DNA of 64,000 bases, taken from the NCBI GenBank assembly GCA_041652815.1, contig JBAZGN010000004.1, positions 79,890 through 143,889 of the forward strand. Direction: 5' to 3'. This document shows positions 43,917 to 61,917 of this stretch, piece by piece. Each line of letters begins with the position of its first letter. Position 1 is the stretch's first letter. The position numbers were made by a program, and so were the translations under genes. This stretch comes from Candidatus Omnitrophota bacterium. GTDB taxonomy: Bacteria; Omnitrophota; Gorgyraeia; Duberdicusellales; 4484-171. The notes under the pieces were generated by a model. That model saw only the letters and a list, made by a program, of their open reading frames with translations, had not been told where the DNA came from and searched no databases.

Positions 43917-43946
43917 GCAATATACTTTAACGACGAATCGGCGCGC

Positions 43947-45269
43947 GTGTTGTTGGAAAAAATAAAGTCGAGTAAGAGGACGAAAAAAATGGAAGAAAAT
44001 AATTTAGTGCAACGTATAGAGGTACTTTATGGTCAGTTATCTTCGCTTGGAGAAACGATAAAATCATCTATCAACCATAAAGATAAAAGCGATTCTTCTT
44101 ATCCTCAGGCCGCCAAAAGATACAATGTTATACTAAAACAGCTACAAGAATTAACTAAAGACATCGACTATATTCGAGAAAGTATATCACAGTTCACCGA
44201 ATATGAAGAAAAGAGCTTTATGTATCACGGTAATTACGGATACGCAATCAACCTATTAACAGATATCAATATGTTAGTTTCTTCTATTTCTAAATTTAAG
44301 AGCAGTATTGCTTTGGAGGCGAAAAAGATACAAGGCGAAAAGCCCTTGATATTTATTAGCTACGATGGAGACGAATTAGCACTCGCGGATTTCGTAAAAG
44401 TTATTATTACCAGATGGGCAGCAGACAAGATTGAAACATTCGTTGCTCGAAGAGATATTGGTTCCGGAGACAATCCGCTCAAGACTATGATGGAACTTAA
44501 GTTAAAAAATGCTGATGCTATAATTACAATTTGTTCAATTAAGTCTAAAGAAAGTGGTTGGGTGTGGTGGGAATCGGCTGTTTTATGGGCTAAAGACCGG
44601 AAAATTTTTCCTTTATGTAGCAATATATCTCCGGGTGGTTTTGGTGCCCCACTTAATTTGGTATCTCAAGGAAAATACTTTTTCGACGAAACTGAGTTTA
44701 TGGAAACTATTCAAGTGGTTTGTTCTGAATTTGACATCCAGACAGTAATAAAAGAGTTTTCTCAGGAAGAGAAAAAAGAGTATGAAAAGCTAAAGAGTGA
44801 ATATTCAATACCGAAGACAACCTCAAAAATAGATGTTGTTTTTGAAACGCTGGAAATGACTCAAAACTTGCACAAGTATTCCTTGATATTTGATGTATGG
44901 AATCTTGGAGATAAGGCATTTGAGAACGTAGTGGCTGAACTGTGGTTTCCTACTAAATATCTTGAAAAGACTGAATGGAATTATTCTCATTTACAAGCGG
45001 TTGAGTCAGAAGAAAAGAGGGGATATACTTGTTTGACCTTTGATTTTTCTGCTTTGCCAGACACCGGGAAGAGACAATTTGGGAAAGATTTGTTGCCAAA
45101 GAAGCGCTTGAGAATATTTGGTAAAGGTGGGATTTCAATACTCCAATATCATATGACCCACGATTTATGGTGGGACGTAACGAAGTATGAAGTTGTATGG
45201 AAGGTATACATCAATGGTGGAGCTCCCCACGAAGGTAAGATTTCTTTGCAGTCACTTCAACAATTTTGA
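43947..45269 (+). CDS. Coiled-coil + TIR-like domain protein (island operon gene 3)
   Basis: 440 aa; residues ~125-230 read IFISYDGDE...RRDIGSGDN...SGWVWWE, resembling TIR box1/box2 and the SxWCxxE helix with a conserved Glu. Confidence 0.5.
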   Translation: MLLEKIKSSKRTKKMEENNLVQRIEVLYGQLSSLGETIKSSINHKDKSDSSYPQAAKRYNVILKQLQELTKDIDYIRESISQFTEYEEKSFMYHGNYGYAINLLTDINMLVSSISKFKSSIALEAKKIQGEKPLIFISYDGDELALADFVKVIITRWAADKIETFVARRDIGSGDNPLKTMMELKLKNADAIITICSIKSKESGWVWWESAVLWAKDRKIFPLCSNISPGGFGAPLNLVSQGKYFFDETEFMETIQVVCSEFDIQTVIKEFSQEEKKEYEKLKSEYSIPKTTSKIDVVFETLEMTQNLHKYSLIFDVWNLGDKAFENVVAELWFPTKYLEKTEWNYSHLQAVESEEKRGYTCLTFDFSALPDTGKRQFGKDLLPKKRLRIFGKGGISILQYHMTHDLWWDVTKYEVVWKVYINGGAPHEGKISLQSLQQF

Positions 45270-46468
45270 AGGAAGGAACTATGAAGATTGATTGGACAAA
45301 TATTTGGTCTTGGATAGTTGTAACGATAGCGTCTATAGCTGGGATAGTTACTTTTTTATTGAATATTGGCAAAATCTTTTCTGGAATCGGAAAGGCTTGG
45401 CATTGGCTTTATCGTAGAATTACTCGATATCAACCGCGAGTGCCGAAAGAGACATTACGTTTAATACCGAAACCACGTCATAGCTGGTGGAGTATGGGGA
45501 CATTCGATGGCGAACCTTCTATGCAGCTTGTCTGTGATTGGTACGTTACAAACATAACAAATCAAGCTGTTAAGGTGTGTGGCGCCAGAGTACGGAAACC
45601 GAAAGTTGATGGTCATATGATGGTTCGACATCAAAAAGAAAATATATACGGGGGATACTATATCCCTCCTCAGTATACCACTGACGGAAGGGCAGATTTT
45701 TGGATTCATCCGCCTATAAAGAAAATTGGAGAGCCATTAGTCCTTGATCTCGAATTTATTGACCAATACGGAAATATTCATAGGGTTAAAAAGGTTAAAT
45801 TTAACGCTCCTCAACCAAAGAAGAAGGATGTTGAACCACCGATGGAATCAATAGCAACCATAAAAGACCCTATCGAAAAAGAGATTTTAAGCGTTCTTCA
45901 AAGCGAGGCGCATCGCTATAAAGACTGCGGACGACGAGTTGGAGGACTTGGTAGTGTTGTTCTAAACTATCAGGGGCGCAAAGTTACGGGTGTGGGAACT
46001 GATTGGAGAACGGCTGATTCCCCAGAAATGCAATCGATTGTTCCTGACCCACAGAGCGCAAAACTTGAATCCGACAATGGGACAATCCTTGTACGCTATT
46101 TTCAATCACTTACAGGAAAAGATATACAACGATTTTGTGAAGTTTTGCTTCAACGAATATCCAAAGGCAATGCTTATGCGCCAATCGGCTATTTTTTTCT
46201 GTATGTAGGATATCGAACAAATATATTGAAAGGTGTATTAAAATCTGCTAAAGATAATTTGAAGGGTGATTCGGGGTACGGATTCAGTGATTTACTTCGA
46301 CTTTTAGATGGTATACTTAAATATGAATACCAAAACTTTAATTCAGAAACCTTAGATATTATAGAACAATTTATTGATGGGTTGGACGATGAGTGTCTCT
46401 TCCGTATCCCAGAACGTGTTCGAGCAATAAGGGCATATATTCTATCTAATAAAATTATCTCATCATAA
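45266..46468 (+). CDS. Membrane-anchored hypothetical protein (island operon gene 4)
   Basis: 400 aa; one N-terminal TM; ATGA overlap with gene 3. Confidence 0.45.
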   Translation: MKEGTMKIDWTNIWSWIVVTIASIAGIVTFLLNIGKIFSGIGKAWHWLYRRITRYQPRVPKETLRLIPKPRHSWWSMGTFDGEPSMQLVCDWYVTNITNQAVKVCGARVRKPKVDGHMMVRHQKENIYGGYYIPPQYTTDGRADFWIHPPIKKIGEPLVLDLEFIDQYGNIHRVKKVKFNAPQPKKKDVEPPMESIATIKDPIEKEILSVLQSEAHRYKDCGRRVGGLGSVVLNYQGRKVTGVGTDWRTADSPEMQSIVPDPQSAKLESDNGTILVRYFQSLTGKDIQRFCEVLLQRISKGNAYAPIGYFFLYVGYRTNILKGVLKSAKDNLKGDSGYGFSDLLRLLDGILKYEYQNFNSETLDIIEQFIDGLDDECLFRIPERVRAIRAYILSNKIISS

Positions 46469-46765
46469 GTCTAATAATTGCTAACAAATTATATAATGAA
46501 TTATGATATATTAAGTTTGTCAGTAAAGTATCTTCCGTAAGACAGGATTAAAAAAGGAGGCGGAGTATAATCTAACAATAAAGGTTTCTATATAGAACAT
46601 AGATTTTCCTGATTTACAAACCAACTTGCAAGAGGAAAAGACTATGTCTCGAGCGTACAAACGTTTCGGGGCAAGCGGTCTTTCACTTTTACTTGCAAGT
46701 TGGGTGAGGGACTTAAAAATGCTTGCCCCCCTTTTATTTTTGGGCAGGCAAGGAGGTGTCTGTAT

Positions 46766-47156
46766 GAAAGAAGCAATTTATCTGATAGTTATCTTAACGT
46801 TAGTAGGCGGCTGCGCAAGCTTATCTGAAAAAGGAGATATTTATCTTCATAATTTAGAAAGACATAAACACTCTAAGGAAATAGTAGTGAGCAGTTCTTA
46901 TGACGAGGCATTTAATGCAGTAATAGAAACTTTTCGCGATTTGGGCATCAATGTGCTCAAGAAGGATTATGAAAATAAGAAAATTTTAGGCTCGCTTTAT
47001 CCTGAGCATTATATGAATCATTACGGAGTGTTTTTTAGCGATATGGGAGATAACAAGATAAAAATCACCCTGAAGGCAACGGGTTTTCTTATTAACGAAG
47101 ATACGATTTTGGAGAAAATAAACGAAACATTATCACAACCTAAACTTAAAAAATAA
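46766..47156 (+). CDS. Lipoprotein
   Basis: The internal Met of ORF 46626..47156 gives MKEAIYLIVILTLVGGCAS lipobox. Confidence 0.45.
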
Positions 47157-47194
47157 GAGATTATTATTGTTTGGAGAACAAATAAAGAAGGAGG

Positions 47195-47512
47195 ATGGAT
47201 ATGAAAAATTTAATTCTGGTTTTTGTAGCTATTCTAATCTCTTCTGGTTGCGCAACGTGCTTTGAAGATTTACATATCAGGCAACAGGAAGCCTCTCTAT
47301 ATACTGGAATGTCATATTATGAAGTAGTAAAGATAGTAGGTAGAGAACCGAACCCTGCTCGAGATACGATTCTTCAGGGAACAGACTCAGAAGGTCAATG
47401 GATGACTTGGGTGGTCGGACAAAGCAAACTATTAAGGAGCAACTCAAATTTTACTCAGACTTATCATTTAAAATTCAGAAACAGGAAGCTTACTGAATGG
47501 TGGAGTTCTTAG
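47195..47512 (+). CDS. Lipoprotein
   Basis: LISSGCATC lipobox; 105 aa. Confidence 0.45.
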   Translation: MDMKNLILVFVAILISSGCATCFEDLHIRQQEASLYTGMSYYEVVKIVGREPNPARDTILQGTDSEGQWMTWVVGQSKLLRSNSNFTQTYHLKFRNRKLTEWWSS

Positions 47513-47576
47513 TAAATAATTATAAGCTTCTTGACACCAGCATTATATTAGTATATACTATTTAGTAAATACTAAT

Positions 47577-48191
47577 ATGAAATGGTCAATTTCTTCAAAT
47601 CAGCCAAAGCTTTGTAGCGCTACAAAAATACTTAAAGAGCTTGGTGGAAAACTTAGCAAGAAGATGTTTGAGTATCTCCGGGATACCTTTCGTCTAATTC
47701 CACCTCCCATCAAAAGAAGTGAAGGTAAAGGTATCATAGCCCTATATCCGGAATCCGTTGTGTTTTATTTGCGCCGAATTTTGATTAAGCAGAGCAAAGG
47801 ATTTACCTTCAAGCAGATTAAAGAAAAGCTAAAAATTGATACAGAGCGAATTTTCCAAGAAACCGATGCCTTGAAGCGTCAGTTCGAATTAGAGAAAGAA
47901 TTTAAGAGGCGCTTAGTTCGTGGTTTGAAGACGGGTGACCATCCCGCTTTTGATGATGGAAACGTTATTGGTAGTGCTAATAAGCAGAGTGAAGACATAG
48001 AGTCAATGATAGAGATTGTTAAGAAGGAGTTTAAGAGACAAGCAAGCAAATTAGACGATGTATCAATCAAGGCTATAAGGACCTTGAGAAAGAAATTGGA
48101 TGAACTGGAAAAGCTTGAAGGCGAAAAAAAATTTTCGCAATATGTAATCGAAGAAATTACAAAGGTGGCAAATGAAAAGACAAGGGATTAA
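47577..48191 (+). CDS. MerR/excisionase-like HTH protein with C-terminal coiled coil
   Basis: 204 aa; the N-terminal ~80 aa resemble MerR-type winged HTH; directly upstream of a recombinase. Confidence 0.35.
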   Translation: MKWSISSNQPKLCSATKILKELGGKLSKKMFEYLRDTFRLIPPPIKRSEGKGIIALYPESVVFYLRRILIKQSKGFTFKQIKEKLKIDTERIFQETDALKRQFELEKEFKRRLVRGLKTGDHPAFDDGNVIGSANKQSEDIESMIEIVKKEFKRQASKLDDVSIKAIRTLRKKLDELEKLEGEKKFSQYVIEEITKVANEKTRD

Positions 48192-48741
48192 ATATTTTAC
48201 AAGTGAATTAAAAGGAATCTTGATCAAGACATTAAAATTGCGCCGAGATGCAGTTAGATCATATGCGCTATACGATTTAATGCTTAATACTGGTTTGCGT
48301 TTGGCTGAGGTTATGGGACTTGATGTTGGAGACGTAGAAAACAGAACAGTTCTCGAGGTGATTGGCAAGGGTTCTAAATTTCGAGAAATACCTCTCAATA
48401 AGGCAATCAGAGAGCATATACAAGATTTTTTGAGTTGGAAGAAAAAGAAGGGTGAAGGTTTGTCTGCGGATTCGCCATTATTCGTTAGTAGACTTGGAAA
48501 ACGTCTTAGTAAGCGAGCCGTGCAGCGAGACCTCGCTAAATGGGTTAAGCAAGCTGGAATCGAGGGGCACTTTACGCCGCACTCTCTTAGGCATACGGTT
48601 GGAACAGAATTGTTAAATAAGACAGGGAATTTACGGGTAGTGCAGGAATTTCTCGGCCACGCAGATATATCAACAACTCAGATATATACTCACGTTAGCA
48701 GGGAGCAGATACAGCAGGCTGCTGACCTTTTGGCGATATAA
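48172..48741 (+). CDS. Tyrosine recombinase catalytic domain (truncated, no N-terminal core-binding domain)
   Basis: 189 aa; R(LRLAE)...HSLRHT...GH...Y(IYTHV) catalytic tetrad region. Confidence 0.6.
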   Translation: MKRQGIKYFTSELKGILIKTLKLRRDAVRSYALYDLMLNTGLRLAEVMGLDVGDVENRTVLEVIGKGSKFREIPLNKAIREHIQDFLSWKKKKGEGLSADSPLFVSRLGKRLSKRAVQRDLAKWVKQAGIEGHFTPHSLRHTVGTELLNKTGNLRVVQEFLGHADISTTQIYTHVSREQIQQAADLLAI

Positions 48742-48828
48742 CGACGCATTATATAGAAAAAGCGTCGTTCAATAGCGTTTTTGTGCATAAAGATGGTCAA
48801 AAAATAGGGTATAAAGCGGCGTTCGGAG

Positions 48829-49665
48829 GTGGACAAAATGGACAAAATTGGACCAAGATGGTATAGGGATGAGTCAGGTATTCACGTAGATGTCGAACTT
48901 TTGCCTGAAATAAATATCCTTGTTGAGTTTAACCTGACCGAGAACGAATACAATCAACAAATAGGTATGCTTCTTAATTGGCGTATTACTCGCATAGAAC
49001 AAGAAGCCAAACTGCATTTTGCTGAAAAGAAACCTTTCCGTGTGATAGCTGATATTGTTGGTGTCTCTAAGTCACAGGTTTGCAATGATATTGCTGATTA
49101 TCGTAGAACAATTTTAAAGAGCATCGGGCAAGATATACAAGCTAACGGGTCGGCGCTTGGTCTGTTGGTAGAATTAACTGTGCAGGTTGCGAGCAGAATA
49201 CAGCTTTATTGGGATAAGTATAACGAACTTCAGCGTTCATCGCAAGTGCTGGGAATTCTTTTAGATAGGACATATAACAGGCTTCAAAAGAATCCTAATG
49301 CGAGGGTAACGAATGCCAGCACCTTAAAGGATATAGCTCGAGAGAGACGCGCAATAGCAGAATCACAAAAGAATACCCTTGCGCAGCTTAGAGCAGAAAC
49401 CCAGCAATTGCTAAATATTTATGAGGCTTTTGGTTTGACCAGCATAGAGGCTCTCAGTTTGGTGAACACTGGCGAAGGATATCTACAACAAAAAATAGAT
49501 GAGGTTAAGAGTCTTATGCCTGTGTTAATAAAAATTATCAAGTTAGAAGTTACAGATGAGACACAAAAACGAAACATTTTCGGGAGGCTTGCAAATTTTA
49601 TTAGGGAAAATGCCCTTTCAAAACATTTAAACAATAGTGAGGTGGATTATGAATTTAGAGTATAG
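48829..49665 (+). CDS. Hypothetical protein with putative HTH
   Basis: 278 aa; RVIADIVGVSKSQVCNDI HTH-like segment. Confidence 0.35.
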   Translation: MDKMDKIGPRWYRDESGIHVDVELLPEINILVEFNLTENEYNQQIGMLLNWRITRIEQEAKLHFAEKKPFRVIADIVGVSKSQVCNDIADYRRTILKSIGQDIQANGSALGLLVELTVQVASRIQLYWDKYNELQRSSQVLGILLDRTYNRLQKNPNARVTNASTLKDIARERRAIAESQKNTLAQLRAETQQLLNIYEAFGLTSIEALSLVNTGEGYLQQKIDEVKSLMPVLIKIIKLEVTDETQKRNIFGRLANFIRENALSKHLNNSEVDYEFRV

Positions 49666-49939
49666 CCCAAAAGAAAGATACAACAAGATAGTCGAGATAT
49701 TAGCAGAGGGCGTTATTAGTCTTATCAGATACAGGTTGCGCTTATCTGCAATGTTACACAAGGGTATGAATGAATGCTTGAGTAGAATTATGGATATAAT
49801 GTCTAAGGATAAGTCAGTTAAGTCTTGTGCGATTAGTGGTTATTTTGTCGAGGCTACTATCGAGAAAAATAAACAAAAACGTTATATTGAGCCATTTGGA
49901 AAGGTTTATTCTTTTTCTCAAATGATTACACGCGATTAA
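49637..49939 (+). CDS. Hypothetical protein
   Basis: 100 aa; overlaps the previous ORF. Confidence 0.3.
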   Translation: MRWIMNLEYSPKERYNKIVEILAEGVISLIRYRLRLSAMLHKGMNECLSRIMDIMSKDKSVKSCAISGYFVEATIEKNKQKRYIEPFGKVYSFSQMITRD

Positions 49940-49953
49940 CGCGAGTATCGACA

Positions 49954-50745
49954 ATGTCTTATATTTGTAAAACAGGAAAAGGCGAAGAAGCAGACCCAAG
50001 TTTAGCCATTTTTCCAATCCTCAAAGAGGTAGATGGAAAAAGATTGGTTGTGGGCTCTGCTTTTTTTATTACTAATACGGGAATTTTTGTTACAGCAAAA
50101 CACGTTATAAAGGATGTATTCGACGAAAGAGGCAAGCAAAAATATCCAATATTTGGTTTACAAATTTTACCCGATGATAAATATATAATAAGACCAGTCC
50201 TTAGCTGTTATTCCAATACAAAATCTGATGTGGTGGTCGGTGCATTAGAGCAACAAAGGCATAAAATTACCGGTGAGCCACGATCCAATAAGCTTCTTGT
50301 TCTAACTTTAATTGAGCCAAAACAAGGGGCAAGGATAGTAACTTATGCTTATCCGGGGTCTAAAACCGAAATAGAAGGTAACGTGCAAACCCTTACATTA
50401 AAACCTGAATATTATGATGGAGTATTGGAAGATTATCTTCCGGAAGGTAGAGACAAATCAATGCTTCCTTTTCCGTGTTACAGGGGAAGTATAAGAATTA
50501 TTGGTGGGGCCAGTGGAGGTCCGGTGATGGATGAGCAAGGTCGAGTATTTGGGATAAATTGTACAGGATTCGAAGGAACGAACATCAGTTTTTTTGCCAG
50601 AATAAATGAAATTTTAGCATTGAGAGTTGACGATTTGGTGATAAATGGCGTTCACAGAGATAGTATTGATATTATTGAATTAGCTGAAAGAAAAGTAATT
50701 ATATTTGAACCGTCTTTTAAACGAAGTCAGATAATAAAAAAATAG
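49954..50745 (+). CDS. Trypsin-like (S1/chymotrypsin fold) serine peptidase
   Basis: TAKHV (His), GGASGGPV (Ser) motifs. Confidence 0.65.
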   Translation: MSYICKTGKGEEADPSLAIFPILKEVDGKRLVVGSAFFITNTGIFVTAKHVIKDVFDERGKQKYPIFGLQILPDDKYIIRPVLSCYSNTKSDVVVGALEQQRHKITGEPRSNKLLVLTLIEPKQGARIVTYAYPGSKTEIEGNVQTLTLKPEYYDGVLEDYLPEGRDKSMLPFPCYRGSIRIIGGASGGPVMDEQGRVFGINCTGFEGTNISFFARINEILALRVDDLVINGVHRDSIDIIELAERKVIIFEPSFKRSQIIKK

Positions 50746-50762
50746 TTCCCTCATTTATTTAG

Positions 50763-51026
50763 TTAAGACACGGGAAACATCCTTCTGAGATAATTAACTG
50801 GAATCCTTTCCTTCATTGATACTGGTAGGTCTTCAGGTATATAGTAAATCGGTTTTAAAATCAAACGTTTTTGTCCGTGGGCCGTTCTCAGGATATCAAA
50901 CTCAAATTCATCCGTAAATGCAGTTTGAAGAGAGAGCGTCTCGGGGAGCCATAAAAAAATTGCCCCACCCATTTTCGGGTGGGGTTTAATTTTTTTATGC
51001 TTTTTGTATAAGGCTCGAACCGTCAA
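50763..51026 (-). CDS. Hypothetical protein
   Basis: 87 aa; the only minus-strand ORF near the island right end. Confidence 0.3.
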   Translation of the reverse strand: MTVRALYKKHKKIKPHPKMGGAIFLWLPETLSLQTAFTDEFEFDILRTAHGQKRLILKPIYYIPEDLPVSMKERIPVNYLRRMFPVS

Positions 51027-51221
51027 GGGAGTTTGAGGGAAAGTATTTCCCTCAAATTATTTAAGCTTCTTCGTAAGGAAGGGGAGTGACAGGTGTGAAT
51101 CCGAAGGATGAGCCCGCCAGAGAGGGGAAACGTAGTTTCCTCTTTGTGGAGAGGAATGAGCGAAGTGAATGACGAAGGTTCGCCGAAGGGAAAGCCCTAC
51201 CCGGGGAGTTTTGACAAAAAT

Positions 51222-51248
51222 AGCCCAGCTTTATGCTGGGCTTTTTTG
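51222..51248 (+). terminator. Rho-independent terminator inside repeat copy A
   Basis: agcccagc ttta tgctgggct + tttttg; the same terminator occurs at 51972-51998 and 60273-60300. Confidence 0.6.
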
Positions 51249-51374
51249 TCAAATTGCCTTGGTAAAAGGGCGAGAACACCTGCCGAGTCTGTGTAAATTT
51301 ACTTCGTAAATTTACACAGTATCCAGCGAGGCGGGACGAGAGCCCATTCCAACTTCAAAAGACGGGGGAGTTTT

Positions 51375-51412
51375 TGACTTTTAAACCCTCTGTGATAATA
51401 TATTGCAGAGGG
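51375..51412 (+). promoter_or_regulatory. Promoter/operator module copy 1 (TTGACT-N16-TAATAT; palindrome AACCCTCTG..CAGAGGGTT around the -10)
   Basis: tttttgacttttaaaccctctgtgataatatattgcagagggtt. Confidence 0.6.
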
Positions 51413-51464
51413 TTTTTTGGTTTATTTTTTTAAAGTTAATTGGTATAAAAAAGGAGGGTTGGAT

Positions 51465-51908
51465 ATGAGAGGAAGGTGTATAATTATTTTATCCTTAGCG
51501 ATAAACCTATTTTTTTGTTTTGTTTCGTTTAGTGCGACTCTTCCTGATGAGAATGCTGCAAAAGATTTAACTAATAAAATTATGACAAAAATTGCCAACG
51601 GAGACATCGATAATGCCTTTAAGCTTATGAAGCCTTACGTCCCTATTAGTGCAACAGAAATTGATTCAGCTGCAATTCAGACGAAAGCACAATTAGAACA
51701 GTATGGGCAAAGGTATGGTGAACCGATTGGTTTTGAATTTATTGATTCAACAAAAATTGGTGATTCCGTGTTCAGATTTCGTTATCTTGCAAAAATGAAA
51801 AATAACGCTTTGCCCTGGGTTTTTATTTTTTATAAAACCACAGACGGATGGACATTGAATAACTTTAGTTGGAAGGATAGCGTAGTAAACTTATTTGAAA
51901 AGAATTAA
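51465..51908 (+). CDS. Secreted hypothetical protein
   Basis: ATG after AAGGAGGG; signal peptide MRGRCIIILSLAINLFFCFVSFSA. Confidence 0.5.
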   Translation: MRGRCIIILSLAINLFFCFVSFSATLPDENAAKDLTNKIMTKIANGDIDNAFKLMKPYVPISATEIDSAAIQTKAQLEQYGQRYGEPIGFEFIDSTKIGDSVFRFRYLAKMKNNALPWVFIFYKTTDGWTLNNFSWKDSVVNLFEKN

Positions 51909-51944
51909 CATTAGTTTCTTAACATCAACCAGTTGCTAAATTCG

Positions 51945-52200
51945 TCCAACCAGGGGAGTTTTGACAAAAATAGCCCAGCTTTATGCTGGGCTTTTTTGTC
52001 AAATTGCCTTGGTAAAAGGGCGAGAACACCTGCCGAGTCTGTGTAAATTTACGAAGTAAATTTACACAGTATCAGCGAGGCAGGTGGAGAGCCCTACCCA
52101 ACTCAACCTTAATATATGTATACAGAGAGTTGTCCCTTTAGGGGTTGGGGAGTTTTTGACTTTCTAACCCTCTGTGATAATATATTGCAGAGGGGTTTGT
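51945..52200. repeat. Long composite repeat, copy B
   Basis: Near-identical to copy C 60247-60500, including the perfect 31-nt palindrome ctgtgtaaatttacgaagtaaatttacacag (52039-52069). Confidence 0.7.
52154..52195 (+). promoter_or_regulatory. Promoter/operator module copy 2
   Basis: tttttgactttctaaccctctgtgataatatattgcagagggg. Confidence 0.6.
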
Positions 52201-52250: not shown

Positions 52251-53459
52251 ATGCTGAAAAAACATTTGTTATCCATAGTGGCTTTGCTGGCGATAAGCTT
52301 GAGTATGCCGCTTTCTAGGCTATGCGCTGAAGAATCAAATGGTGTTGTAGCTGCCAATAATCAATTTGCTTTTGAGCTTTATGCCAAATACAAATCAAAA
52401 GACGGAAATATTTTCTTCTCTCCTTACAGTATTTCTTCGGCATTAGCAATGACATATGAAGGCGCAAGGGGAAAGACCGCAGAGGAAATGCTGGTAGTGT
52501 TTCATTTTCCTAAGGATGGCGCTCTCCGTAGAGAAGGCTTCTTAGCCATAAATAATCAAATAAATAAGCAAGATAAAAAATATGAGCTACGTGTAGCAAA
52601 TGCTTTATGGGCAGAGAAGGATTACACATTCCTTGAGAATTATTTTAAGTTAATAAAAGATTACTATGGCGGAGGAGTGACAAATTTGGATTTTAAGTAT
52701 GACGCCGAAAATTCACGCCTTGCAATAAATACTTGGGTTGAAGAGCAAACAAATAATAAAATAAGGAATTTAATTCCTCCGGGCATAATTAATAATATGA
52801 CACGGTTAGTCCTTACTAATGCAATTTATTTTAAAGGAAAATGGCTTAAGCAGTTTGATGAAAAAAATACCATTGATGATGATTTTAGAATAAGCCCGGA
52901 GAAGTCTATTAAAGTTAAAATGATGAAATTAACCAGTAATAAACCAGATTTTAGTTATGCGGAAACAGACAAACTCCAGGTATTGGAATTACCTTATGAT
53001 GGCAAAGAGTTATCAATGTTGATACTTCTTCCCAAGGCGGGCGATTTAAAATCCGTAGAAGAATCACTAAATTCTCAAATGTTGACAGAATTAAAAAACA
53101 ACCTTTATGCAAACTACGTTGACATATTTTTACCAAAATTTAAGGTTGAAAGTAAATATTTTATGGCTGATGATCTTAAAGAAATGGGCATGCCTATGGC
53201 ATTTTCGGATAAGGATGCTGATTTTTCAGGTATGGATGGCATGAGAATTTTATTTATTGGACAAGTGATACACCAGGCTTTTGTTGAGGTGAACGAAGAA
53301 GGCACAGAGGCAGCTGCTGCAACAGCTGTAGTTATGGAATGCACGGGTATCTTTGAACGAAAAGTATTCAAAGCTGACCACCCATTTATATTTATAATTC
53401 AAGAAAAAAAATCCGGAAATATTTTATTTTTGGGAAGGGTTAATAATCCAGAAAGTTAA
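52251..53459 (+). CDS. Serpin (serine protease inhibitor), secreted
   Basis: 402 aa; signal peptide; NAIYFKGKW, reactive-centre-loop hinge EEGTEAAAATAV, C-terminal FKADHPFIFIIQE...ILFLGRVNNP serpin signature. Confidence 0.85.
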   Translation: MLKKHLLSIVALLAISLSMPLSRLCAEESNGVVAANNQFAFELYAKYKSKDGNIFFSPYSISSALAMTYEGARGKTAEEMLVVFHFPKDGALRREGFLAINNQINKQDKKYELRVANALWAEKDYTFLENYFKLIKDYYGGGVTNLDFKYDAENSRLAINTWVEEQTNNKIRNLIPPGIINNMTRLVLTNAIYFKGKWLKQFDEKNTIDDDFRISPEKSIKVKMMKLTSNKPDFSYAETDKLQVLELPYDGKELSMLILLPKAGDLKSVEESLNSQMLTELKNNLYANYVDIFLPKFKVESKYFMADDLKEMGMPMAFSDKDADFSGMDGMRILFIGQVIHQAFVEVNEEGTEAAAATAVVMECTGIFERKVFKADHPFIFIIQEKKSGNILFLGRVNNPES

Positions 53460-53470
53460 TCATGAGGTAT

Positions 53471-53505
53471 TTTTGACTTTCCAACCCTCTGTGATAATAT
53501 ATTGC
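53471..53505 (+). promoter_or_regulatory. Promoter/operator module copy 3 (right palindrome half absent)
   Basis: tttttgactttccaaccctctgtgataatatattgccagcc. Confidence 0.5.
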
Positions 53506-53564
53506 CAGCCTCGCATAGCTCGGTAGGCGGGCAGAGAGTTTCTGATTGAGGTGCAATTCAGTAT

Positions 53565-53906
53565 ATGGAAATAGTTACAAATACATTGGATCTTAATAGG
53601 CTTAGAGAGATGGCAGCTGGTATTTTTGGCAACCTAGTAAAAGCAGTTGTCGACGTTGATAAAGAACTACTCGCAGTTGACGGGGAGTTACATTCTGATT
53701 TAGAAGCGTTGTTACTTGAGAGCGGTTCAAGGCAAAAAAGCCTTTGGGGGATTAATCTTTATCCGGAGATGCAGGGGAAAGATTTTATTGAGTTTGATTC
53801 CGTGATAAATATGCGTCCTTCCCAAGATAACAGGAGCCGCGGAGTGGATGATGAACAAATACGCAAGAAAATTATAGAAGTTGTTAGCAAGAGGATTAAA
53901 CAATGA
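53565..53906 (+). CDS. Hypothetical protein
   Basis: 113 aa; 4-nt overlap with the next ORF. Confidence 0.4.
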   Translation: MEIVTNTLDLNRLREMAAGIFGNLVKAVVDVDKELLAVDGELHSDLEALLLESGSRQKSLWGINLYPEMQGKDFIEFDSVINMRPSQDNRSRGVDDEQIRKKIIEVVSKRIKQ

Positions 53907-54235: not shown

Positions 54236-54333
54236 CGCTGTTAAACAGCATAACACATTTTTTTGTTTTATTCAGACTCACCAAAAAAAATCGAGCTCAA
54301 TAGACAATATAGATATTTTTCCCAATAGGGCAT

Positions 54334-54375
54334 TTTGACTTTTCAACCCTCTATGATAATAAATTGCAGAGGGTT
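54334..54375 (+). promoter_or_regulatory. Promoter/operator module copy 4
   Basis: attttgacttttcaaccctctatgataataaattgcagagggtt. Confidence 0.55.
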
Positions 54376-54416
54376 TTTTCTTTGGGATAAAATAATAAAG
54401 AAGATGGAGGTAGATT

Positions 54417-54717: not shown

Positions 54718-54845
54718 TCGTTGTCCTCTGGCGGCGAGAGTTTTTTGGCGATAGCCAAGGTTAAGTAAGGGTAATTCTCGTAGCAATCGCAGGCATGTCT
54801 CTGTTCTTTACGCGGAAGTTCCCGCTATTTCAACGAAAAATTTTG

Positions 54846-54872
54846 ATTTTGACGAAATCTTGTGATAATATT
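54846..54872 (+). promoter_or_regulatory. Degenerate promoter/operator module copy 5 (TTGACG..TGTGATAATATTG)
   Basis: ttttgacgaaatcttgtgataatattgtgg just upstream of the ORF start. Confidence 0.4.
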
Positions 54873-56706
54873 GTGGCATATGAAAATAAGCTATAAAAGC
54901 TTATTTGTAACGATTGTTTTTCTGGCTTTTCTGGCAAGCGGACTGTTAGCCGATTCCTATGCCGACTCTGGGTCATATAAAAAACCCGTATATAAAATAA
55001 AACCCACTTACAAGAAACCACCCTCTACAGGCGGAGCAACGGTTTATCCGACTACAACAACTTCGCCTGAAACGCCTGTATATACAACAAAACCTACTTA
55101 CAAGAAACCACCTTCTACAGGCGGATCAACTGTTTACCCAACTACAACAACTTATCCTGAAAATCCAGTATATACAATAAACCCTAACTATAAGAAGCCA
55201 CCCGCTACAGGCGGAGCAACGGTTTATCCTCCTGCTACAACTTCGCCTGAAACGCCTGTATATATAATAAAGCCTACTTATCCGCTTCCTTCATTTTCGC
55301 CTTCGCTGCCTTCACAGCCGCAGCAGCAGGAAGACGAGCCAGAGCTTGGCCGGACACAGCATGCGCTTGGTCTTGGTGTCTTTAGTGACGCGTGGGACTA
55401 CGTCTCAGGTAAGGCAAGCGATGGTTATGATGCTTTAAGAGACCTCGCCGAAGGCGGTTATGATAGAGCTAGGGATGCTGCTAGCGACACCGGAAATTGG
55501 TTTTCGGATTGGTTTACGGATCCTGTGGGGGCGTCTAATGATTTGTTTAACGCGGCGGTTGATACGTTTCAGGATTTTTTAAACGGAGTCGCGGATTTCG
55601 GGCAAAGCATTTTTAACGGAGCAGTCGATGCATCTCAATATATCGGCAATCGTTTCGTAGATTTTTTCCAGGATATAACCGGCATTGACGGATTTGTAGA
55701 CAGGGCGCAGGGTTGGGCGAATGACGCTACAGACGCGATTCAGGATGGTATTAATGACTTTATAGATTCAGCGCAGGCTGTGCAAAATGACGCTATTGAT
55801 GCTGCTCAGGATGGTGCAAACAGCGTTTTTGATTCCATATATGATGCCGCAAGAAACGCCAGAGAAGCCTTTGAAGACGCGATTGATGCGGCACTGGGAC
55901 GAAACAGAGGGCAGACCGGAGCAGGCAGTCAGGGTGCTGAACCAGCCGTCGGACCCGAAGAAGAAGCGCCTTCTGGACAAGGACCTGCTGGACAAGGACC
56001 TGCTGGACAAGGACCTGCTGGACAAGGACCTGCTGGACAAGGACCTGCTGGACAAGGACCTGCTGGACAAGGACCTGCTGGACAAGGACCTGATGGACAA
56101 GGACCTGCTGGACAAGGACCTGCTGGACAAGGACCTGCTGGACAAGGACCTGCTGGACAAGGACCTGCTGGACAAGGACCTGCTGGACAAGGACTTCCTA
56201 ATCAGCCACCCGCTCAGATTATCGTTCCTAACGCTCCGGTCCAAGTTCTCCCAGGCCAGCCTGTGACAACTCAGACAACCGCCATTCCGAACGCGAGTTC
56301 TGGAGCGCAGCAGATTTCAAAACAGCCGGGAAGTGCGGAGTCATTAACGCCGCATCCTGAAAGGCTTCTCGTAAAAAAAGCAAGGCCGGCAACTCCTGCG
56401 TGGATTTTACTTCTATTATATGCCTACATGGCAATGTGCTTACAGCGTATCGCCAAAAAAACCGCTACGTCGAAGGGATGGTTAGCATGGGTGCCTTTTG
56501 TTAATTTGTATTTATCCTGTAAGATCGCACGAAAGCCTGGCTGGACGACATTATTTTTCTTTATTCCGGTTATGAATATAGTGATGGCAATTATCGTAAG
56601 TATCGGTATTGCCAAAGCGAGGGGTAAGCCTGGCTGGCTAGGCCTTTTTTCGTTCATTCCTGTAGCCAATCTTATACTGCCGGCATATCTGGCCCTTTCC
56701 AGGTAG
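54862..56706 (+). CDS. Secreted repeat protein: Pro-rich YKKPPSTGG-TVYPTTTTSPETPVYT repeats, D/A-rich region, ~13x GQGPAG collagen-like repeats, C-terminal 2-TM W..W.P..N domain
   Basis: 614 aa; signal peptide; 18-bp DNA tandem repeats at 55966-56202; C-terminus homologous to ORF 20378..21109. Confidence 0.6.
   Translation: MIILWHMKISYKSLFVTIVFLAFLASGLLADSYADSGSYKKPVYKIKPTYKKPPSTGGATVYPTTTTSPETPVYTTKPTYKKPPSTGGSTVYPTTTTYPENPVYTINPNYKKPPATGGATVYPPATTSPETPVYIIKPTYPLPSFSPSLPSQPQQQEDEPELGRTQHALGLGVFSDAWDYVSGKASDGYDALRDLAEGGYDRARDAASDTGNWFSDWFTDPVGASNDLFNAAVDTFQDFLNGVADFGQSIFNGAVDASQYIGNRFVDFFQDITGIDGFVDRAQGWANDATDAIQDGINDFIDSAQAVQNDAIDAAQDGANSVFDSIYDAARNAREAFEDAIDAALGRNRGQTGAGSQGAEPAVGPEEEAPSGQGPAGQGPAGQGPAGQGPAGQGPAGQGPAGQGPAGQGPDGQGPAGQGPAGQGPAGQGPAGQGPAGQGPAGQGLPNQPPAQIIVPNAPVQVLPGQPVTTQTTAIPNASSGAQQISKQPGSAESLTPHPERLLVKKARPATPAWILLLLYAYMAMCLQRIAKKTATSKGWLAWVPFVNLYLSCKIARKPGWTTLFFFIPVMNIVMAIIVSIGIAKARGKPGWLGLFSFIPVANLILPAYLALSR
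55966..56202 (+). repeat. 18-bp tandem repeat (ggacctgctggacaagga) x~13 inside a CDS, encoding (GQGPAG)n
   Basis: Near-perfect copies with one GAT variant. Confidence 0.8.
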
Positions 56707-56774
56707 CGCAAAGAATAAGGGGCAAGTTGTGCTAGTTCGATAATTCGTTAACTCCGTTTCCCCAAACATCAACC

Positions 56775-56858
56775 AGTTGCGAAATTCGTCTAATGAGCCA
56801 GCATCTTTTGAAGCTGAAGGCGCACAAAAGTGCGTTGGCGAATTATCCCCGAAGGGGA
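56775..56858 (+). repeat. ~85-nt repeated leader element (copy 1)
   Basis: agttgcgaaattcgtctaatgagccagcatcttttgaagctgaaggcgcacaaaagtgcgttggcgaattatccccgaaggggac is identical at 61751-61834. Confidence 0.7.
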
Positions 56859-56873
56859 CTACTATGTCAGTTT

Positions 56874-56913
56874 TTGACTTTCCAACCCTTTGTGATAATA
56901 TATCACAAAGGGT
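56874..56913 (+). promoter_or_regulatory. Promoter/operator module copy 6 (extended perfect palindrome ccctttgtgata-ata-tatcacaaaggg)
   Basis: tttttgactttccaaccctttgtgataatatatcacaaagggtt. Confidence 0.6.
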
Positions 56914-56964
56914 TTTTATTTTAAGTCAAATAGGAGGATCATAGAATTAGATAAAGGATTAGGC

Positions 56965-57744
56965 ATGGATAACATTAAGATTTGGTTACCGTTATTATTA
57001 GCTTTTTTGGCTGGGCTCTTTACATTGCTTGGTAGCCTTGTTTGTTTTCTTGTAAGAGACCTTAAGAAATCTTATCTGGAATTTTCTCTGGGGTTGTCAG
57101 CTGGAGTAATGATTTATATTGCCTTTGTAGAATTATTAACTTCGTCAATTAGAAACATCGGTTTCTTAAAAGCAAATATGTCATTCTTCGGAGGTATTAT
57201 CCTGATTATGTTTCTCGATTTTGTTATTCCCCACGAATATATTGACGAACATATTCAAAGGACAGGGGGAGATAAGAAAATTATGAAAGCCGGAATATTT
57301 ATTGCCATTGGCTTGGCAATTCATAATTTTCCGGAGGGCTTAGCGGTTTTTATGAGCTCTATGGTAAATATTAAATTAGGTATTTCTTTAGCTGTAGCAA
57401 TAGCGTTGCATAATATTCCCGAAGGTGTAGCTATAGCAATGCCGATTTTTTACGCCACCAAAAGCAGAAGAAAAGCATTCTGGTATTCTTCTTTATCAGG
57501 GATTGCCGAACCCATTGGAGCTATTGTAGGTATGTTGGTATTAATGCCATTTCTTAAATCAAACGTTTTATCTTATTGTCTTGCTGCTATTGCCGGGATA
57601 ATGGTTTTTATCAGTTTTGATGAACTTCTGCCTTTATCATGCGAGAATAAGAAGTCGCATGTGACTATTTTAGGTATTATATTAGGAATGTTAATGATCT
57701 TCCCCCGAAAAAGTGGACACAACGAAGAGTTGGTATTAGCATAA
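56965..57744 (+). CDS. zupT: ZIP-family zinc transporter ZupT
   Basis: 259 aa; HNFPEGLAVF and HNIPEGVAIA metal-binding helices. Confidence 0.8.
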   Translation: MDNIKIWLPLLLAFLAGLFTLLGSLVCFLVRDLKKSYLEFSLGLSAGVMIYIAFVELLTSSIRNIGFLKANMSFFGGIILIMFLDFVIPHEYIDEHIQRTGGDKKIMKAGIFIAIGLAIHNFPEGLAVFMSSMVNIKLGISLAVAIALHNIPEGVAIAMPIFYATKSRRKAFWYSSLSGIAEPIGAIVGMLVLMPFLKSNVLSYCLAAIAGIMVFISFDELLPLSCENKKSHVTILGIILGMLMIFPRKSGHNEELVLA

Positions 57745-57773: not shown

Positions 57774-58082
57774 ATGGAAGGTCAAAGCGTCAGAATGAAA
57801 CGGTTTGATAAGGCATTTAAGATTCAAGCTGTCAAAATGGTTACTGAAGAAGGCCAAAAAGCCTCAGAGGTAGCCCGTTCATTAGGAATCCATGCTAACA
57901 TGCTCTACAATTGGAAAAAAAGATACTCCGCTGAAGGCGACAAAACCTTCGTAGGCAAAGGTCATCTGAGTGAGATAGTATCTCTGCGGCGGAAGCTACG
58001 TGACGCCGAGATGGAGATAGAAATCCTAAAAAAAGCAGTCGGCATATTTTCAAAAACGACCGAGAACGGTGCGAGTTTATAG
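57774..58082 (+). CDS. IS3-family transposase OrfA (HTH)
   Basis: 102 aa; HTH; ends just past the A7G slippery site ctaaaaaaagc. Confidence 0.75.
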   Translation: MEGQSVRMKRFDKAFKIQAVKMVTEEGQKASEVARSLGIHANMLYNWKKRYSAEGDKTFVGKGHLSEIVSLRRKLRDAEMEIEILKKAVGIFSKTTENGASL

Positions 58083-58114
58083 ACTCAAATCGTTTAAGCT
58101 ATCCGCTTGAGAAA

Positions 58115-58930
58115 ATGTGCCGGGCAGTAGAAGTATCCAGGAGCGGATACTATGACTTCAAAAGAAGGCCTAAAAGTAAGAACAGAATCAATAACGAGAA
58201 GCTGCTCATTGAAATACGCAGGGTATTCTGGGATAATAACCGTAATTACGGTAGCCCTCGAGTATGGGATCAGTTGCGTAATAAGGAACAGATTCTTTGT
58301 TCTTTGAATCGCGTTGCCAGGCTTATGCGCTACAATAACCTGGTTGCCATACAAAGGCGTAAATTCCGGGTAACAACAAATTCAAAGCATAACTATCCCG
58401 TATGGCCGAATGTCTTAAATAGAAACTTCTCTGTAGAAAAGCCCAACGCTGTCTGGGTAACGGATATAACCTATATCTGGACATTTGAGGGCTGGCTGTA
58501 TCTTGCGGCAATCATGGATTTGCATTCCAGAGGTATCGTAGGCCTTGCTATGGATAAGACTATTTCCGATACCTTGACGCTGCAGGCATTGGGACAGGCA
58601 ATCCTAAGACGTTCACCGCCCAAAGGGTTGATTTGTCATTCCGACAGAGGAACTCAGTATGCCTGCAACGATTTTAAGGCATTATTGGCTCAGCATGAAC
58701 TTATCGGCAGCATGAGCAAAAAAGGCGATTGCTGGGATAATGCCGTTGCTGAGAGTTTTTTCCATACGCTTAAAGTAGAGCTTATACACCGGATGAAATT
58801 CAGAACCAGAGAAGAAGCGAAAAGAAAGATATTTGAATACGTGGAAATGTATTACAACACCAAGAGGGCACATTCAACACTTGGCTACTTAAGCCCTTTT
58901 GAGTATGAAAAGCAGGCGCTAGTATTTTAA
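58115..58930 (+). CDS. IS3-family transposase OrfB (integrase core DDE)
   Basis: 271 aa; D...D...E rve domain (WVTDITYI, HSDRGTQY, E in VAESFF); -1 frame relative to orfA. Confidence 0.8.
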   Translation: MCRAVEVSRSGYYDFKRRPKSKNRINNEKLLIEIRRVFWDNNRNYGSPRVWDQLRNKEQILCSLNRVARLMRYNNLVAIQRRKFRVTTNSKHNYPVWPNVLNRNFSVEKPNAVWVTDITYIWTFEGWLYLAAIMDLHSRGIVGLAMDKTISDTLTLQALGQAILRRSPPKGLICHSDRGTQYACNDFKALLAQHELIGSMSKKGDCWDNAVAESFFHTLKVELIHRMKFRTREEAKRKIFEYVEMYYNTKRAHSTLGYLSPFEYEKQALVF

Positions 58931-59559: not shown

Positions 59560-59718
59560 AATGGAGTTTTTAGTCACTGAAAACAGGCGTTATTATCTTA
59601 ACAATCTGTCCACTAAAGAGGGGAAGGTCATAATAATTGCTTTGAGCCTATACTTGTTTTAAGGATACTATTTTGATCGAGTTTTAATTTAGTAAAGTAT
59701 AATCAGTTACTGCGAGTT

Positions 59719-59758
59719 TTGACTTTCTAACCCTCTGTGATAATATATTGCAGAGGGT
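59719..59758 (+). promoter_or_regulatory. Promoter/operator module copy 7
   Basis: gttttgactttctaaccctctgtgataatatattgcagagggtt. Confidence 0.6.
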
Positions 59759-59796
59759 TTTTTTGATTGGGGTGAAATAAAGAAGAAGGAGAAAAG

Positions 59797-60183: not shown

Positions 60184-60246
60184 TCAGAGTCATTTCTTTG
60201 GTCAGTTTTTCCGCTTCCCTAAACATCACCCAGTTGCTAAATTCGT

Positions 60247-60500: not shown

Positions 60501-60535
60501 TTTATTTTAAATAATACCGTTAAAAAGGAGAGCGA

Positions 60536-61678: not shown

Positions 61679-61750
61679 TGTTCTTAGACTATCTTAGCGC
61701 AATTTGACCCAGTTTTTCACATAATTCTTTTTGATTATCGAACAGTAGAA

Positions 61751-61834: not shown

Positions 61835-61848
61835 CAACCCGGGGAGTT

Positions 61849-61885: not shown

Positions 61886-61917
61886 GGTTTTTGTCCTAAT
61901 TTTAATATCTAAAAACT

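Follow-up and report, generated by a model that had tools for sequence, protein, structure and literature searches.

Long repeats downstream of a tRNA-Asn gene in an Omnitrophota genome suggest serial integration at one site

INTRODUCTION

In Dehalococcoides, integrated islands stand in tandem at the ssrA gene, with a CcrB-family recombinase of about 540 amino acids (aa) located by attL on the reverse strand, many direct repeats downstream and a conserved motif beside each repeat; units of this kind that lack a recombinase have been read as cis-mobilizable elements (PMC3146451). The ends of islands are marked by a regenerated gene and a displaced fragment (PMC4383910). Here we analyse a stretch of 64,000 nt from the genome of Candidatus Omnitrophota bacterium (GenBank assembly GCA_041652815.1, contig JBAZGN010000004.1, positions 79,890 to 143,889; hereafter the window), in which a long non-coding repeat with an internal palindrome occurs three times in an array of small genes downstream of a tRNA-Asn gene. 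The long repeats can be read as strata left by successive arrivals of DNA at a single tRNA gene, in a phylum that is uncultivated.

Other described systems share some of these traits. Cis-mobilizable elements (CIMEs) are units bounded by att repeats and without recombination genes that are stacked at one site, and they are defined by att sites, demonstrated or inferred, of a known integrase. Bacterial interspersed mosaic elements and repetitive extragenic palindromes (BIME/REP), as well as the Correia and BOX elements, are modular intergenic repeats made of hairpins, with terminator or promoter activity and with tens to hundreds of copies per genome.

RESULTS

Structure of the three long repeats

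The repeat is a non-coding block found as copy A (51194-51420), copy B (51945-52200) and copy G (60247-60505). It consists of a core, an element called S, in copies B and G a further module M3, and a module M4; S is composed of a terminator hairpin and a conserved rod hairpin. The shared order runs from (C)C(A/C)GGGGAG to the hairpin AGCCCAGC-TTTAT-GCTGGGCT with its T-run, then through GGGCGAGAACACCTGCCGAG and the palindrome to ...GCGAGGC(G/A)GG and M4. Copy A is 92% identical to copies B and G over about 160 nt. Copies B and G are 96.9% identical to each other over 288 nt, and from the core to the end of M4 just three positions differ. The genes flanking B and G are unrelated despite this near-identical junction DNA.

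The initial annotation had recognized three copies, each with core, terminator, palindrome and promoter module, and all three are located where it placed them. Its remark that the core matches a tRNA 3' end was correct, since the copy at 38482-38490 ends the tRNA-Asn gene, although the copy that was put at 61836 lies at 61838. The core CCCGGGGAG occurs four times in the window (38482, 51200, 60251 and 61838), against 0.14 occurrences expected. The promoter module is indeed part of the repeats, but it exists in eight good copies rather than three. The palindrome had been described as flipped at its centre; inversion is an apt description, but of 3 nt (TTC vs GAA) and not of 4 nt, the reported ttcg/gaag being off by one.

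The 31-nt palindrome is formed by perfect 14-nt arms, CTGTGTAAATTTAC and GTAAATTTACACAG, around these three bases (positions in Table 1). The loop is TTC in copy A and in the related Omnitrophota metagenome-assembled genome (MAG) STA_84 (JAQTOI010000004.1), and GAA in copies B and G. TTC and GAA are exact reverse complements, and so are CTTCG and CGAAG once the closing pair is counted (5 nt). The three simultaneous changes are explained by one inversion event, through either recombination or template switching between the perfect arms. The flip needs no special machinery, since recombination between perfect hairpin arms inverts the loop. Flipping of hairpin loops between inverted arms is well documented in plastid DNA (PMC6824564, citing Kelchner and Wendel 1996). 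The present case resembles the plastid small inversions in that the loop enclosed by perfect inverted arms occurs in either orientation and several bases change in one step (PMC6824564), and it differs in that it concerns a bacterial genome, a loop of 3 nt and only two states, one per repeat lineage. There is no sign of ongoing switching of the loop in other assemblies of the population, which match the window here except for tandem-repeat copy number. The palindrome was also considered as an invertible switch or a lox/dif-like site. This was rejected because no polymorphism was found and a 3-nt segment is not invertible by synapsis of two sites.

Independent assemblies of the population from other samples (L002-L005) break inside M4 of copy B (52165) or inside M3 (52081/2), which indicates that the repeats limit assembly.

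The tRNA-Asn gene and the adjoining island

The anchor (attB) of the whole region and target of integration is the tRNA-Asn gene listed in Table 1. ARAGORN called three tRNAs in the window, none of them near the cores, and overlooked this gene because of its group I intron, which is matched by Rfam Intron_gpI at 38242-38445. Exon 2 is 100% identical, and exon 1 with the leader 90.6% identical, to the intron-less tRNA-Asn that ARAGORN called in a relative (L015). The gene ends in ...GAGCCCTACCCGGGGAG-CCA. On its 5' side an S-like element is flanked by two copies of a 31-37-nt repeat that consists of the tRNA leader and the first 11 nt of the tRNA, while another relative, L013, has an empty site that lacks this element. 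The tRNA-Asn intron of L013 contains an HNH-type open reading frame (ORF).

The 12.5-kb segment that follows has the marks of a tRNA island: the tRNA is intact, a displaced fragment of its 3' end, CGGGGAGCCA, is present as a direct repeat at the far end, a recombinase gene adjoins the tRNA, and the site is uninterrupted in relatives, the island being absent from L015, L020 and STA_84. The first island gene (38479-40107, minus strand) overlaps the tRNA end and encodes a large serine recombinase of 542 aa, which matches Pfam Resolvase, Recombinase and Zn_ribbon_recom and, below curated cut-offs, CcrB/XisF-like models of NCBIfam. In L019 a different recombinase, only 27% identical, occupies the same position and orientation at tRNA-Asn. 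Both recombinases end in W-L-P-G-stop, encoded by the complement of CCCGGGGAGCCA (38479-38493 in the window, 11657-11671 in L019). This stretch is the tRNA-Asn 3' end read on the opposite strand, so that the att site falls within the coding frame of the recombinase. Besides DUF2254 and TIR proteins, the cargo of the island includes a trypsin-like protease and a tyrosine recombinase that is truncated and Xer-like (48172-48741).

The island is followed by element X. The 5' end of X repeats part of the tRNA T-arm in inverted orientation, and the two ends of X can pair. Its last 16 nt are identical to the tRNA 3' end (51193-51208 = 38475-38490); a 16/16 match was obtained in 0 of 2000 shuffles. 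Homologues of X are located directly 3' of tRNA-Asn in L015 (12538-12760) and after an island remnant in L008 (3650-3906). The variation of X across genomes is too small for covariation analysis. Neither ARAGORN nor Rfam supported X as a transfer-messenger RNA (tmRNA) or other known RNA, and this candidate was rejected.

Copy A begins where X ends. In STA_84, an intron-bearing tRNA-Asn is followed by GGGGAG-TTTTG, a terminator hairpin, a homologous rod and the promoter module; the terminator of this S differs in sequence from that of the window and only the rod is homologous. In L020, an intron-less tRNA-Asn is directly followed by the terminator half of S, which is about 90% identical to that of the window over 85 nt, whereas RecR DNA is only 72% identical between the two. 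Since the same terminator, or terminator plus rod, stands directly after tRNA-Asn in related Omnitrophota MAGs, S is the 3' flank of tRNA-Asn in this lineage, and copy A is this native flank, which X and the island have displaced by 12.7 kb. Copies B and G, about 99% identical, are later, secondary copies at internal junctions between unrelated genes. The flanks of tRNA-Asn in relatives were reached through RecR neighbours, which was useful for L013-L015 and L019-L021; many of the RecR-neighbour contigs stop just past the tRNA, and genomes of the L015 type have a different gene order.

The rod hairpin

The rod is built of a 5-6-bp helix, a tandem GA/GA, a 2-3-bp helix and a 12-14-bp AT-rich hairpin, with a conserved bulge on the 3' side. 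This bulge is of the TATYYA type (TATCCA, TATTTA or TATCTA, with TATATA in L015) and is one base shorter in copy B. Six copies of the rod were compared, namely those in S copies A, B and G, that in S of STA_84, one between the duplicated tRNA-Asn leaders of the window (38083-38141) and one upstream of tRNA-Asn in L015 (11741-11798). All of the approximately 21 helix pairs are kept in these six copies from four lineages, with compensatory double changes at no fewer than seven positions. The pairs were parsed by hand and checked by script; MAFFT shifts the 5' helix by one column. The retention of all pairs with compensatory changes indicates that the rod is under selection as a folded structure, either as RNA or as single-stranded DNA.

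Folding z-scores range from -3.3 to -6.8. A search of S, X, M2b (a further junction module, see below) and M4 against Rfam 15 gave nothing at the gathering score, and matches at E <= 10 were at chance level only. The rod is a small hairpin family with clear compensatory evolution and without known relatives. Its 5' copies lie between the tRNA promoter and the tRNA, and the three rods of the long repeats lie between a terminator and the next promoter.

Junctions and array

Downstream of X, an array of 10.7 kb contains about eight small gene units in one direction (Table 1). Its junctions are assembled from M1, a core, in some cases a non-coding block (S, M2b or M3), and M4, and at most of them a core resembling the tRNA end stands before S or M4. 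Short copies of the tRNA end (cores of 6-16 nt) occur in a single orientation at 50942, 51193, 51365, 51950, 52147, 60251, 60450 and 61838. The core is exact over 9-16 nt at 51193, 60251 and 61838, matches at 8/9 positions at 51950, is present as GGGGAG at 51365, 52147 and 60450, and is decayed at four other junctions. Module M4, of about 50 nt and with the consensus (GGGGAG)TTTTTGACTTTnnAACCCTCTGTGATAATATATTGCAGAGGGTTTTTT, starts at 51371, 52153, 53470, 54332, 56871, 59716, 60456 and 61847, always on the plus strand, against none expected by chance. No further M4 was found in the other 53 kb or so of the window or in the next 8 kb or so of the contig, and no junction modules were found in the first 38 kb, inside the island or in about 8 kb past the window. 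Since M4 is intact where the core is decayed, the core does not belong to what keeps M4 conserved, and it resembles a recombination scar.

Module M1 (..CAGTTGCGAAATTCGTCCAA..) is located just after stop codons at four junctions. The idea that M1 is a decayed 3' half of tRNA-Asn was rejected, the core alone being significant. Module M2b is present at two junctions of the window and once in L008 (6795-6866), and is about 90% conserved between MAGs. By eye, M2b could form two hairpins within a stem made with M1 (AATTCGTC / GGCGAATT) as well as a CCCC-GAA-GGGG hairpin; the only Rfam match was to PyrR and at chance level.

The sequence of M4 suggests a double function. A consensus scan finds a promoter, TTGACT-16 nt-TAATAT, with an upstream TG in 7/8 copies and with TAATAA in copy D. 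M4 also scores as an intrinsic terminator, with a hairpin of 12-15 pairs and a T-run in five copies, and its folding z-scores are between -5.3 and -6.1. The module lies 40-67 nt 5' of start codons on the plus strand, most of which are preceded by a ribosome-binding site, and the -10 element sits within the hairpin. Read-through from the tRNA or from an upstream unit would carry the whole hairpin with the T-run and would stop there. Transcripts begun at M4 would lack the 5' arm of the hairpin, so that they would not be terminated and the next gene could be expressed. M4 may thus be a compact module that ends one transcript and starts the next, and it is nearly unchanged across genera that are about 30% apart in a housekeeping protein. 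S likewise opens with a bidirectional terminator, called on both strands, and in fact a terminator stands at the head of each block behind a tRNA-end core, whether this is the start of X, S or M4. Such a layout is exactly what an element that rebuilds a tRNA gene would need.

The genes in the array are mutually unrelated. They encode a 147-aa secreted-type protein, a serpin, a DUF5674 protein with a 110-aa partner, small membrane proteins, a 614-aa repeat protein, a ZIP transporter, two tetratricopeptide-repeat (TPR) proteins and a PAS protein. According to Pfam and NCBIfam the array ORFs include no recombination genes, and the only mobility genes are those of an IS3-family element (orfA/orfB; HTH_Tnp_1, rve) at 57774-58930, between the ZIP gene and a 204-aa TPR gene. 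Two of the array genes carry tandem repeats of which the copy number varies between samples. These are a 15-nt repeat (PAGQG units, 55906-56244) inside ORF 54862-56706, giving 614 vs 548 aa, and 102-nt TPR repeats (60693-61478) inside ORF 60536-61678, giving 380 vs 346 aa.

Table 1. Coordinates of the tRNA-Asn gene, the island and the junction elements of the array (window positions)
Feature	Position	Strand	Details
S-like element 5' of tRNA-Asn	38010-38187	+	hairpin 38041-38081; rod 38083-38141
tRNA-Asn(GUU)	38171-38493	+	exon 1 38171-38205; group I intron 38206-38452; exon 2 38453-38490; encoded CCA 38491-38493
Integrated island, 12.5 kb	38494-50951		direct repeat CGGGGAGCCA at both ends (38484-38493 / 50942-50951)
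Element X	50952-51208	+	257 nt; terminator 50962-50985, then conserved non-coding element of about 200 nt
S copy A	51209-51364	+	TTTTGAC; bidirectional terminator 51222-51242; rod outer 51268-51345, inner 51279-51335; palindrome 51289-51319
Core GGGGAG + M4 copy A	51365-51420	+	-35 TTGACT 51374-51379; TG-extended -10 TAATAT 51396-51401; hairpin 51383-51415; T-run
147-aa secreted-type ORF	51465-51908	+	after M4 copy A
M1 + core CCAGGGGAG	51921-51958	+	left side of junction, just 3' of the stop codon of the 147-aa ORF
S copy B	51959-52146	+	terminator 51972-51992; rod inner 52029-52084; palindrome 52039-52069, loop GAA; M3 with 33-nt extra segment
Core GGGGAG + M4 copy B	52147-52200	+	upstream of serpin gene 52251-53459
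M4 copy C	53470-53550	+	upstream of DUF5674 gene (53565-53906) and 110-aa ORF; 3' hairpin arm split by a 26-nt GC-rich hairpin resembling the rod base
M4 copy D	54332-54380	+	upstream of 78-aa membrane ORF
Degenerate M4-like site	near 54841-54870	+	upstream of 614-aa ORF
Junction E	56765-56916	+	M1 56765-56793; M2b 56794-56863; decayed core; M4 56871-56916, perfect 11-bp hairpin variant; upstream of ZIP transporter gene 56965-57744
M4 copy F	59716-59763	+	decayed core GCGAG; upstream of 128-aa membrane ORF 59797-60183
M1 + core CCCGGGGAG, junction G	60222-60259	+	core at 60251
S copy G	60260-60449	+	perfect-palindrome terminator; rod inner 60331-60387; palindrome 60341-60371, loop GAA; M3
Core GGGGAG + M4 copy G	60450-60505	+	upstream of TPR gene 60536-61678
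Junction H	61741-61892	+	last junction of the array; M1; M2b 61770-61837; core CCCGGGGAG 61838-61846; M4 with degenerate hairpin; upstream of PAS gene 61918-62460

Distribution in other genomes

A scan with the strict M4 pattern of 185,579 species, each represented by one genome, returned four stretches in three Omnitrophota MAGs only. In STA_84 all M4 matches lie on the same strand within 4.4 kb downstream of tRNA-Asn. The array of STA_84 is composed of tRNA-Asn, S, M4, a gene for a 137-aa membrane protein, M1-core-M4, a TPR gene, M1-core-M4, three genes, M1, an S-like hairpin and M4; the last of the three genes encodes a PAS protein that is 83% identical to the one in the window. The order of small membrane protein, TPR and PAS is common to the window and STA_84, so that part of the array is old, with the homology between the membrane proteins being weak. 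The junction between the membrane protein and TPR genes is empty in STA_84 (M1-core-M4) and filled in the window (M1-core-S-M3-core-M4). L008, a closer relative, possesses the right part of the island, X, and junctions of both the M4 and the M1-M2b-M4 kind, and its gene set and gene order differ in part. The content and order of units are shared in some respects among the window, L008 and STA_84 and differ in others. M4 is found in one short array per genome, and this array abuts tRNA-Asn in both genomes in which the tRNA was located.

When metagenomes were scanned for the S pattern (GGGCGAGAA..GAGGCRGG..GAGAGCCC), only two chance matches were obtained, in unrelated GC-rich or coding DNA. Scans of viral contigs yielded one chance match for S and zero for M4. 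Distant homologues of the 128-aa protein (P0123, P0124) are found in trp operons without the modules and are uninformative on cassette mobility.

DISCUSSION

Serial integration at tRNA-Asn

The observations on core, flank and island can be combined in a scheme to which we assign a somewhat better than even chance. The repeats would be footprints of serial site-specific integration or accretion at tRNA-Asn, consisting of att-type junctions with the displaced flank, followed by exchange between junctions. An incoming element would recombine at the tRNA end, regenerate the tRNA and leave at its far side a displaced fragment of the tRNA end together with whatever had followed it. Units without a recombinase would behave as cis-mobilizable cassettes. 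Recombination between near-identical junctions would shuffle blocks; the most evident recent case is the B/G pair, between which S with M3 may have been copied a very short time ago. Serial integration was one of several explanations offered by the initial annotation and is the best supported among them, because the core is the tRNA-Asn 3' end, an island with a serine recombinase precedes copy A, and the same flank follows the tRNA in relatives. The likeness to an insulated expression cassette, also proposed there, holds as a prediction, M4 scoring both as promoter and as terminator at a short distance from start codons.

Several points argue against serial integration. No excision, circular junction or polymorphism in junction layout or loop was seen, the population assemblies agreeing with the window in all but tandem-repeat copy number. 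Anchorage of M4 at tRNA-Asn is shown in two genomes only, no tRNA-Asn having been located near M4 of L007 and L008, and the search for copies in this genome covered about 74 kb. The right end of the island is unlike M1, the only other recombinase nearby is the truncated Xer-like protein, and the likeness of M1 to the tRNA 3' half is not significant past the core. Covariation in the M4 hairpin is no better than in shuffles, though 92% of cells are paired, and the promoter and terminator activities of M4 are predicted ones. The synteny with a distant relative implies that some junction modules are old and vertically inherited. Moreover, plain homologous recombination alone could explain the spread of S and much of the pattern.

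Alternative explanations

In view of these points other explanations were weighed, which are given here in falling order of probability. The first is that S itself, with its terminator and rod (about 110-190 nt), is mobile but non-autonomous. Insertion would take place at sites of the GGGGAG/TTTT(T)GAC type and at the 5' end of tRNA-Asn, the target being duplicated, and a recombinase or homing nuclease acting in trans would mobilise S. A mobile S would account for the direct repeat GGGGAGTTTT(T)GAC that flanks S in all three copies and in STA_84, for the related hairpin and rod between the 31-37-nt leader repeats of tRNA-Asn with L013 as the empty site, and for the orthologous junction that is filled in the window and empty in STA_84. 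The compensatory changes of the rod in four lineages, and the small GIY-YIG genes and other short insertions that crowd the tRNA genes of this lineage (see below), would also suit it. However, there are just three or four copies here, at one locus, and the repeats on either side are of unequal length (13-14 vs 31-37 nt), in contrast to target duplications made by a transposase. In addition, homology of S between genomes is limited to the rod and does not extend to the first hairpin, and the flanking homology (M1 and core on the left, M4 on the right) suffices for homologous recombination. We therefore regard mobility of S as unlikely. The same applies to the suggestion in the initial annotation of a miniature inverted-repeat transposable element, of which one part stands: the block of terminator and rod can be gained as a unit, as the filled and empty junctions illustrate. 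All copies found nevertheless lie in one locus per genome, and the block has no terminal inverted repeat, its complementarity being internal (the rod), and the repeats at its flanks are unequal, with 13-14 nt around S and 31-37 nt around the 5' copy. No dispersed copies were found beyond the locus in the roughly 74 kb of this genome that were searched, and in STA_84 all matches are downstream of its tRNA-Asn.

A second explanation dispenses with site-specific integration at internal junctions and takes the array to be an ancient gene cluster, passed on vertically, in which gene conversion and selection keep the junctions alike. On this view GGGGAG would belong to the regulatory module, and local duplication would account for the spread of S. 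This would be consistent with the order of membrane protein, TPR and PAS genes and the M1/M4 junctions that are shared with STA_84, of which RecR is only 71% identical, and with the identity of M4 of about 90% or more across MAGs, which exceeds that of the genes it separates. Copies B and G also resemble a recent conversion tract. Yet GGGGAG decays at four junctions where M4 is intact, so M4 does not need it, and the cores that extend furthest (9-16 nt) reproduce the tRNA end exactly. The window, L008 and STA_84 differ in which units they contain and in how these are ordered, and the locus demonstrably takes integrating elements. Purely vertical descent of the junctions is improbable in our judgement.

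The third possibility goes further than serial integration and is distinctly doubtful. It holds that the locus is a gene-capture platform anchored at tRNA-Asn, integron-like but built differently, in which self-expressed M4-gene-M1 cassettes are gained, lost and shuffled through site-specific recombination at a core that mimics the acceptor end of the tRNA, with the rod as a folded nucleic-acid site for recombination or control. If the junctions were indeed active recombination sites, bacteria would have, besides integrons, another means of accumulating genes at a single place in a form ready for expression.

The rod could instead be a functional structured RNA, either a small RNA or a processing or protein-binding element in the flanks of the tRNA-Asn precursor and in 3' untranslated regions, with its copies kept for that function. 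The fold z-scores (-3.3 to -6.8), the retention of all of about 21 pairs and the conservation of the unpaired GA/GA and of the TATYYA-type bulge agree with this, and the 5' copies, being between the tRNA promoter and the tRNA, are probably transcribed. On the other hand, the three rods of the long repeats follow a strong terminator and precede the next promoter, Rfam has no counterpart of it up to E <= 10, the compensatory changes would suit a cruciform or a folded site in single-stranded DNA just as well, and the comparison comprises four independent lineages only. A role as RNA seems to us quite improbable as an explanation of the repeats.

An integron or integron-like platform with the repeats as attC sites is hardly credible in spite of the one-directional row of small unrelated genes, the conserved junction repeats and the adjoining recombinase genes, because the only tyrosine recombinase is a 189-aa Xer-like domain (TIGR02249 90.7 bits vs a cut-off of 265), no RYYYAAC...GTTRRRY boxes are present in M1, S, M2b or M4 (junctions read directly, no attC model run), and every unit has a predicted promoter of its own.

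Insertions around other tRNA genes

Other tRNA genes of this lineage also carry insertions. A second copy of tRNA-Ser(GCU) at 34882-35145, near the intact tRNA-Ser (35422-35514), contains inserts in three loops, namely the D-loop (50 nt), the anticodon loop (80 nt) and the T-loop (53 nt). This interrupted copy lacks the acceptor 3' strand, and after removal of the inserts ARAGORN calls it as tRNA-Ser(gct). This copy might represent a pseudogene into which small elements have inserted, or a more unusual case. A family of 53-nt repeats with two hairpins (..CCGCCAC..GGCGGATCCGCCTCTGGCGGAAA) is found in the window at 29224-29276, 34900-34952 and 35084-35136 and in STA_84 (L009, about 960-1030, minus strand). 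Its members are located in or beside tRNA genes (Lys, Ser, Asn), often near a small GIY-YIG ORF.

Small GIY-YIG nuclease genes (about 85-90 aa) are positioned directly upstream of tRNAs in the window (35170-35445), in STA_84 (7050-7322 of the reverse complement) and in L015 (12028-12285). They sit between partial, duplicated 5' fragments of the adjoining tRNA, and in L015 at least two partial 5' pieces of tRNA-Asn are stacked. The stacking of tRNA 5' pieces by these genes mirrors the stacking of 3' ends in the array.

A second group I intron is present at 19783-19996 (Rfam 63.7 bits), followed at about 20040-20085 by an apparent tRNA 3' half that bears a CAU anticodon (..CATAACCTTGAGGTCACAGGTTCAAATCCTGTCCCCGCAA) and was not called by ARAGORN. 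Downstream of tRNA-Arg there is a long imperfect palindrome (25013-25130) of repeated GGTTACGAA / TTCGTAACC units. The motif at its tip, ACGAAGT / ACTTCGT, also occurs in the palindrome of S and in a hairpin upstream of tRNA-Ser (34851-34878).

Comparison with known systems

The locus resembles the tRNA islands collected with Islander and TIGER in having an intact tRNA, a displaced 3' fragment, an integrase on the tRNA side and an uninterrupted site in relatives (PMC4383910). That resource was built around tyrosine integrases (PMC4383910), whereas here a large serine recombinase and a short 10-nt repeat are involved.

The closest described case is that of the Dehalococcoides ssrA islands (PMC3146451), with which the locus shares an adjoining recombinase on the reverse strand, 3'-end repeats in one orientation, a conserved flank, units without a recombinase and variable content. 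The target differs, being a tRNA-Asn gene with a group I intron and not tmRNA. Most units are smaller (0.2-3 kb) and contain one or two genes, and three are non-coding (X, S). Each junction here carries a conserved combined terminator and promoter (predicted), and there are at least two types of core (GGGGAGCCA and GGGGAG/TTTT).

[quoted passage not shown] Integron cassette arrays likewise show a one-directional row of small unrelated genes with structured repeats; the present array is without IntI and attC boxes and its predicted promoters are borne by the units. BIME/REP, Correia and BOX elements are dispersed in far greater numbers than the present repeats, which were found in one short array per genome, by tRNA-Asn in the two genomes where it was located.

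In view of the above, the array is a tidy and fairly ordinary example of a known process, the use of a tRNA gene as a landing site for mobile DNA, and it extends the tandem-island pattern known from Dehalococcoides ssrA to tRNA-Asn in Omnitrophota. What appears to set it apart from the known pattern of tandem islands and accretion is the miniature size of the units, each with a predicted promoter of its own, and the conserved junction that would serve both as terminator and as promoter.

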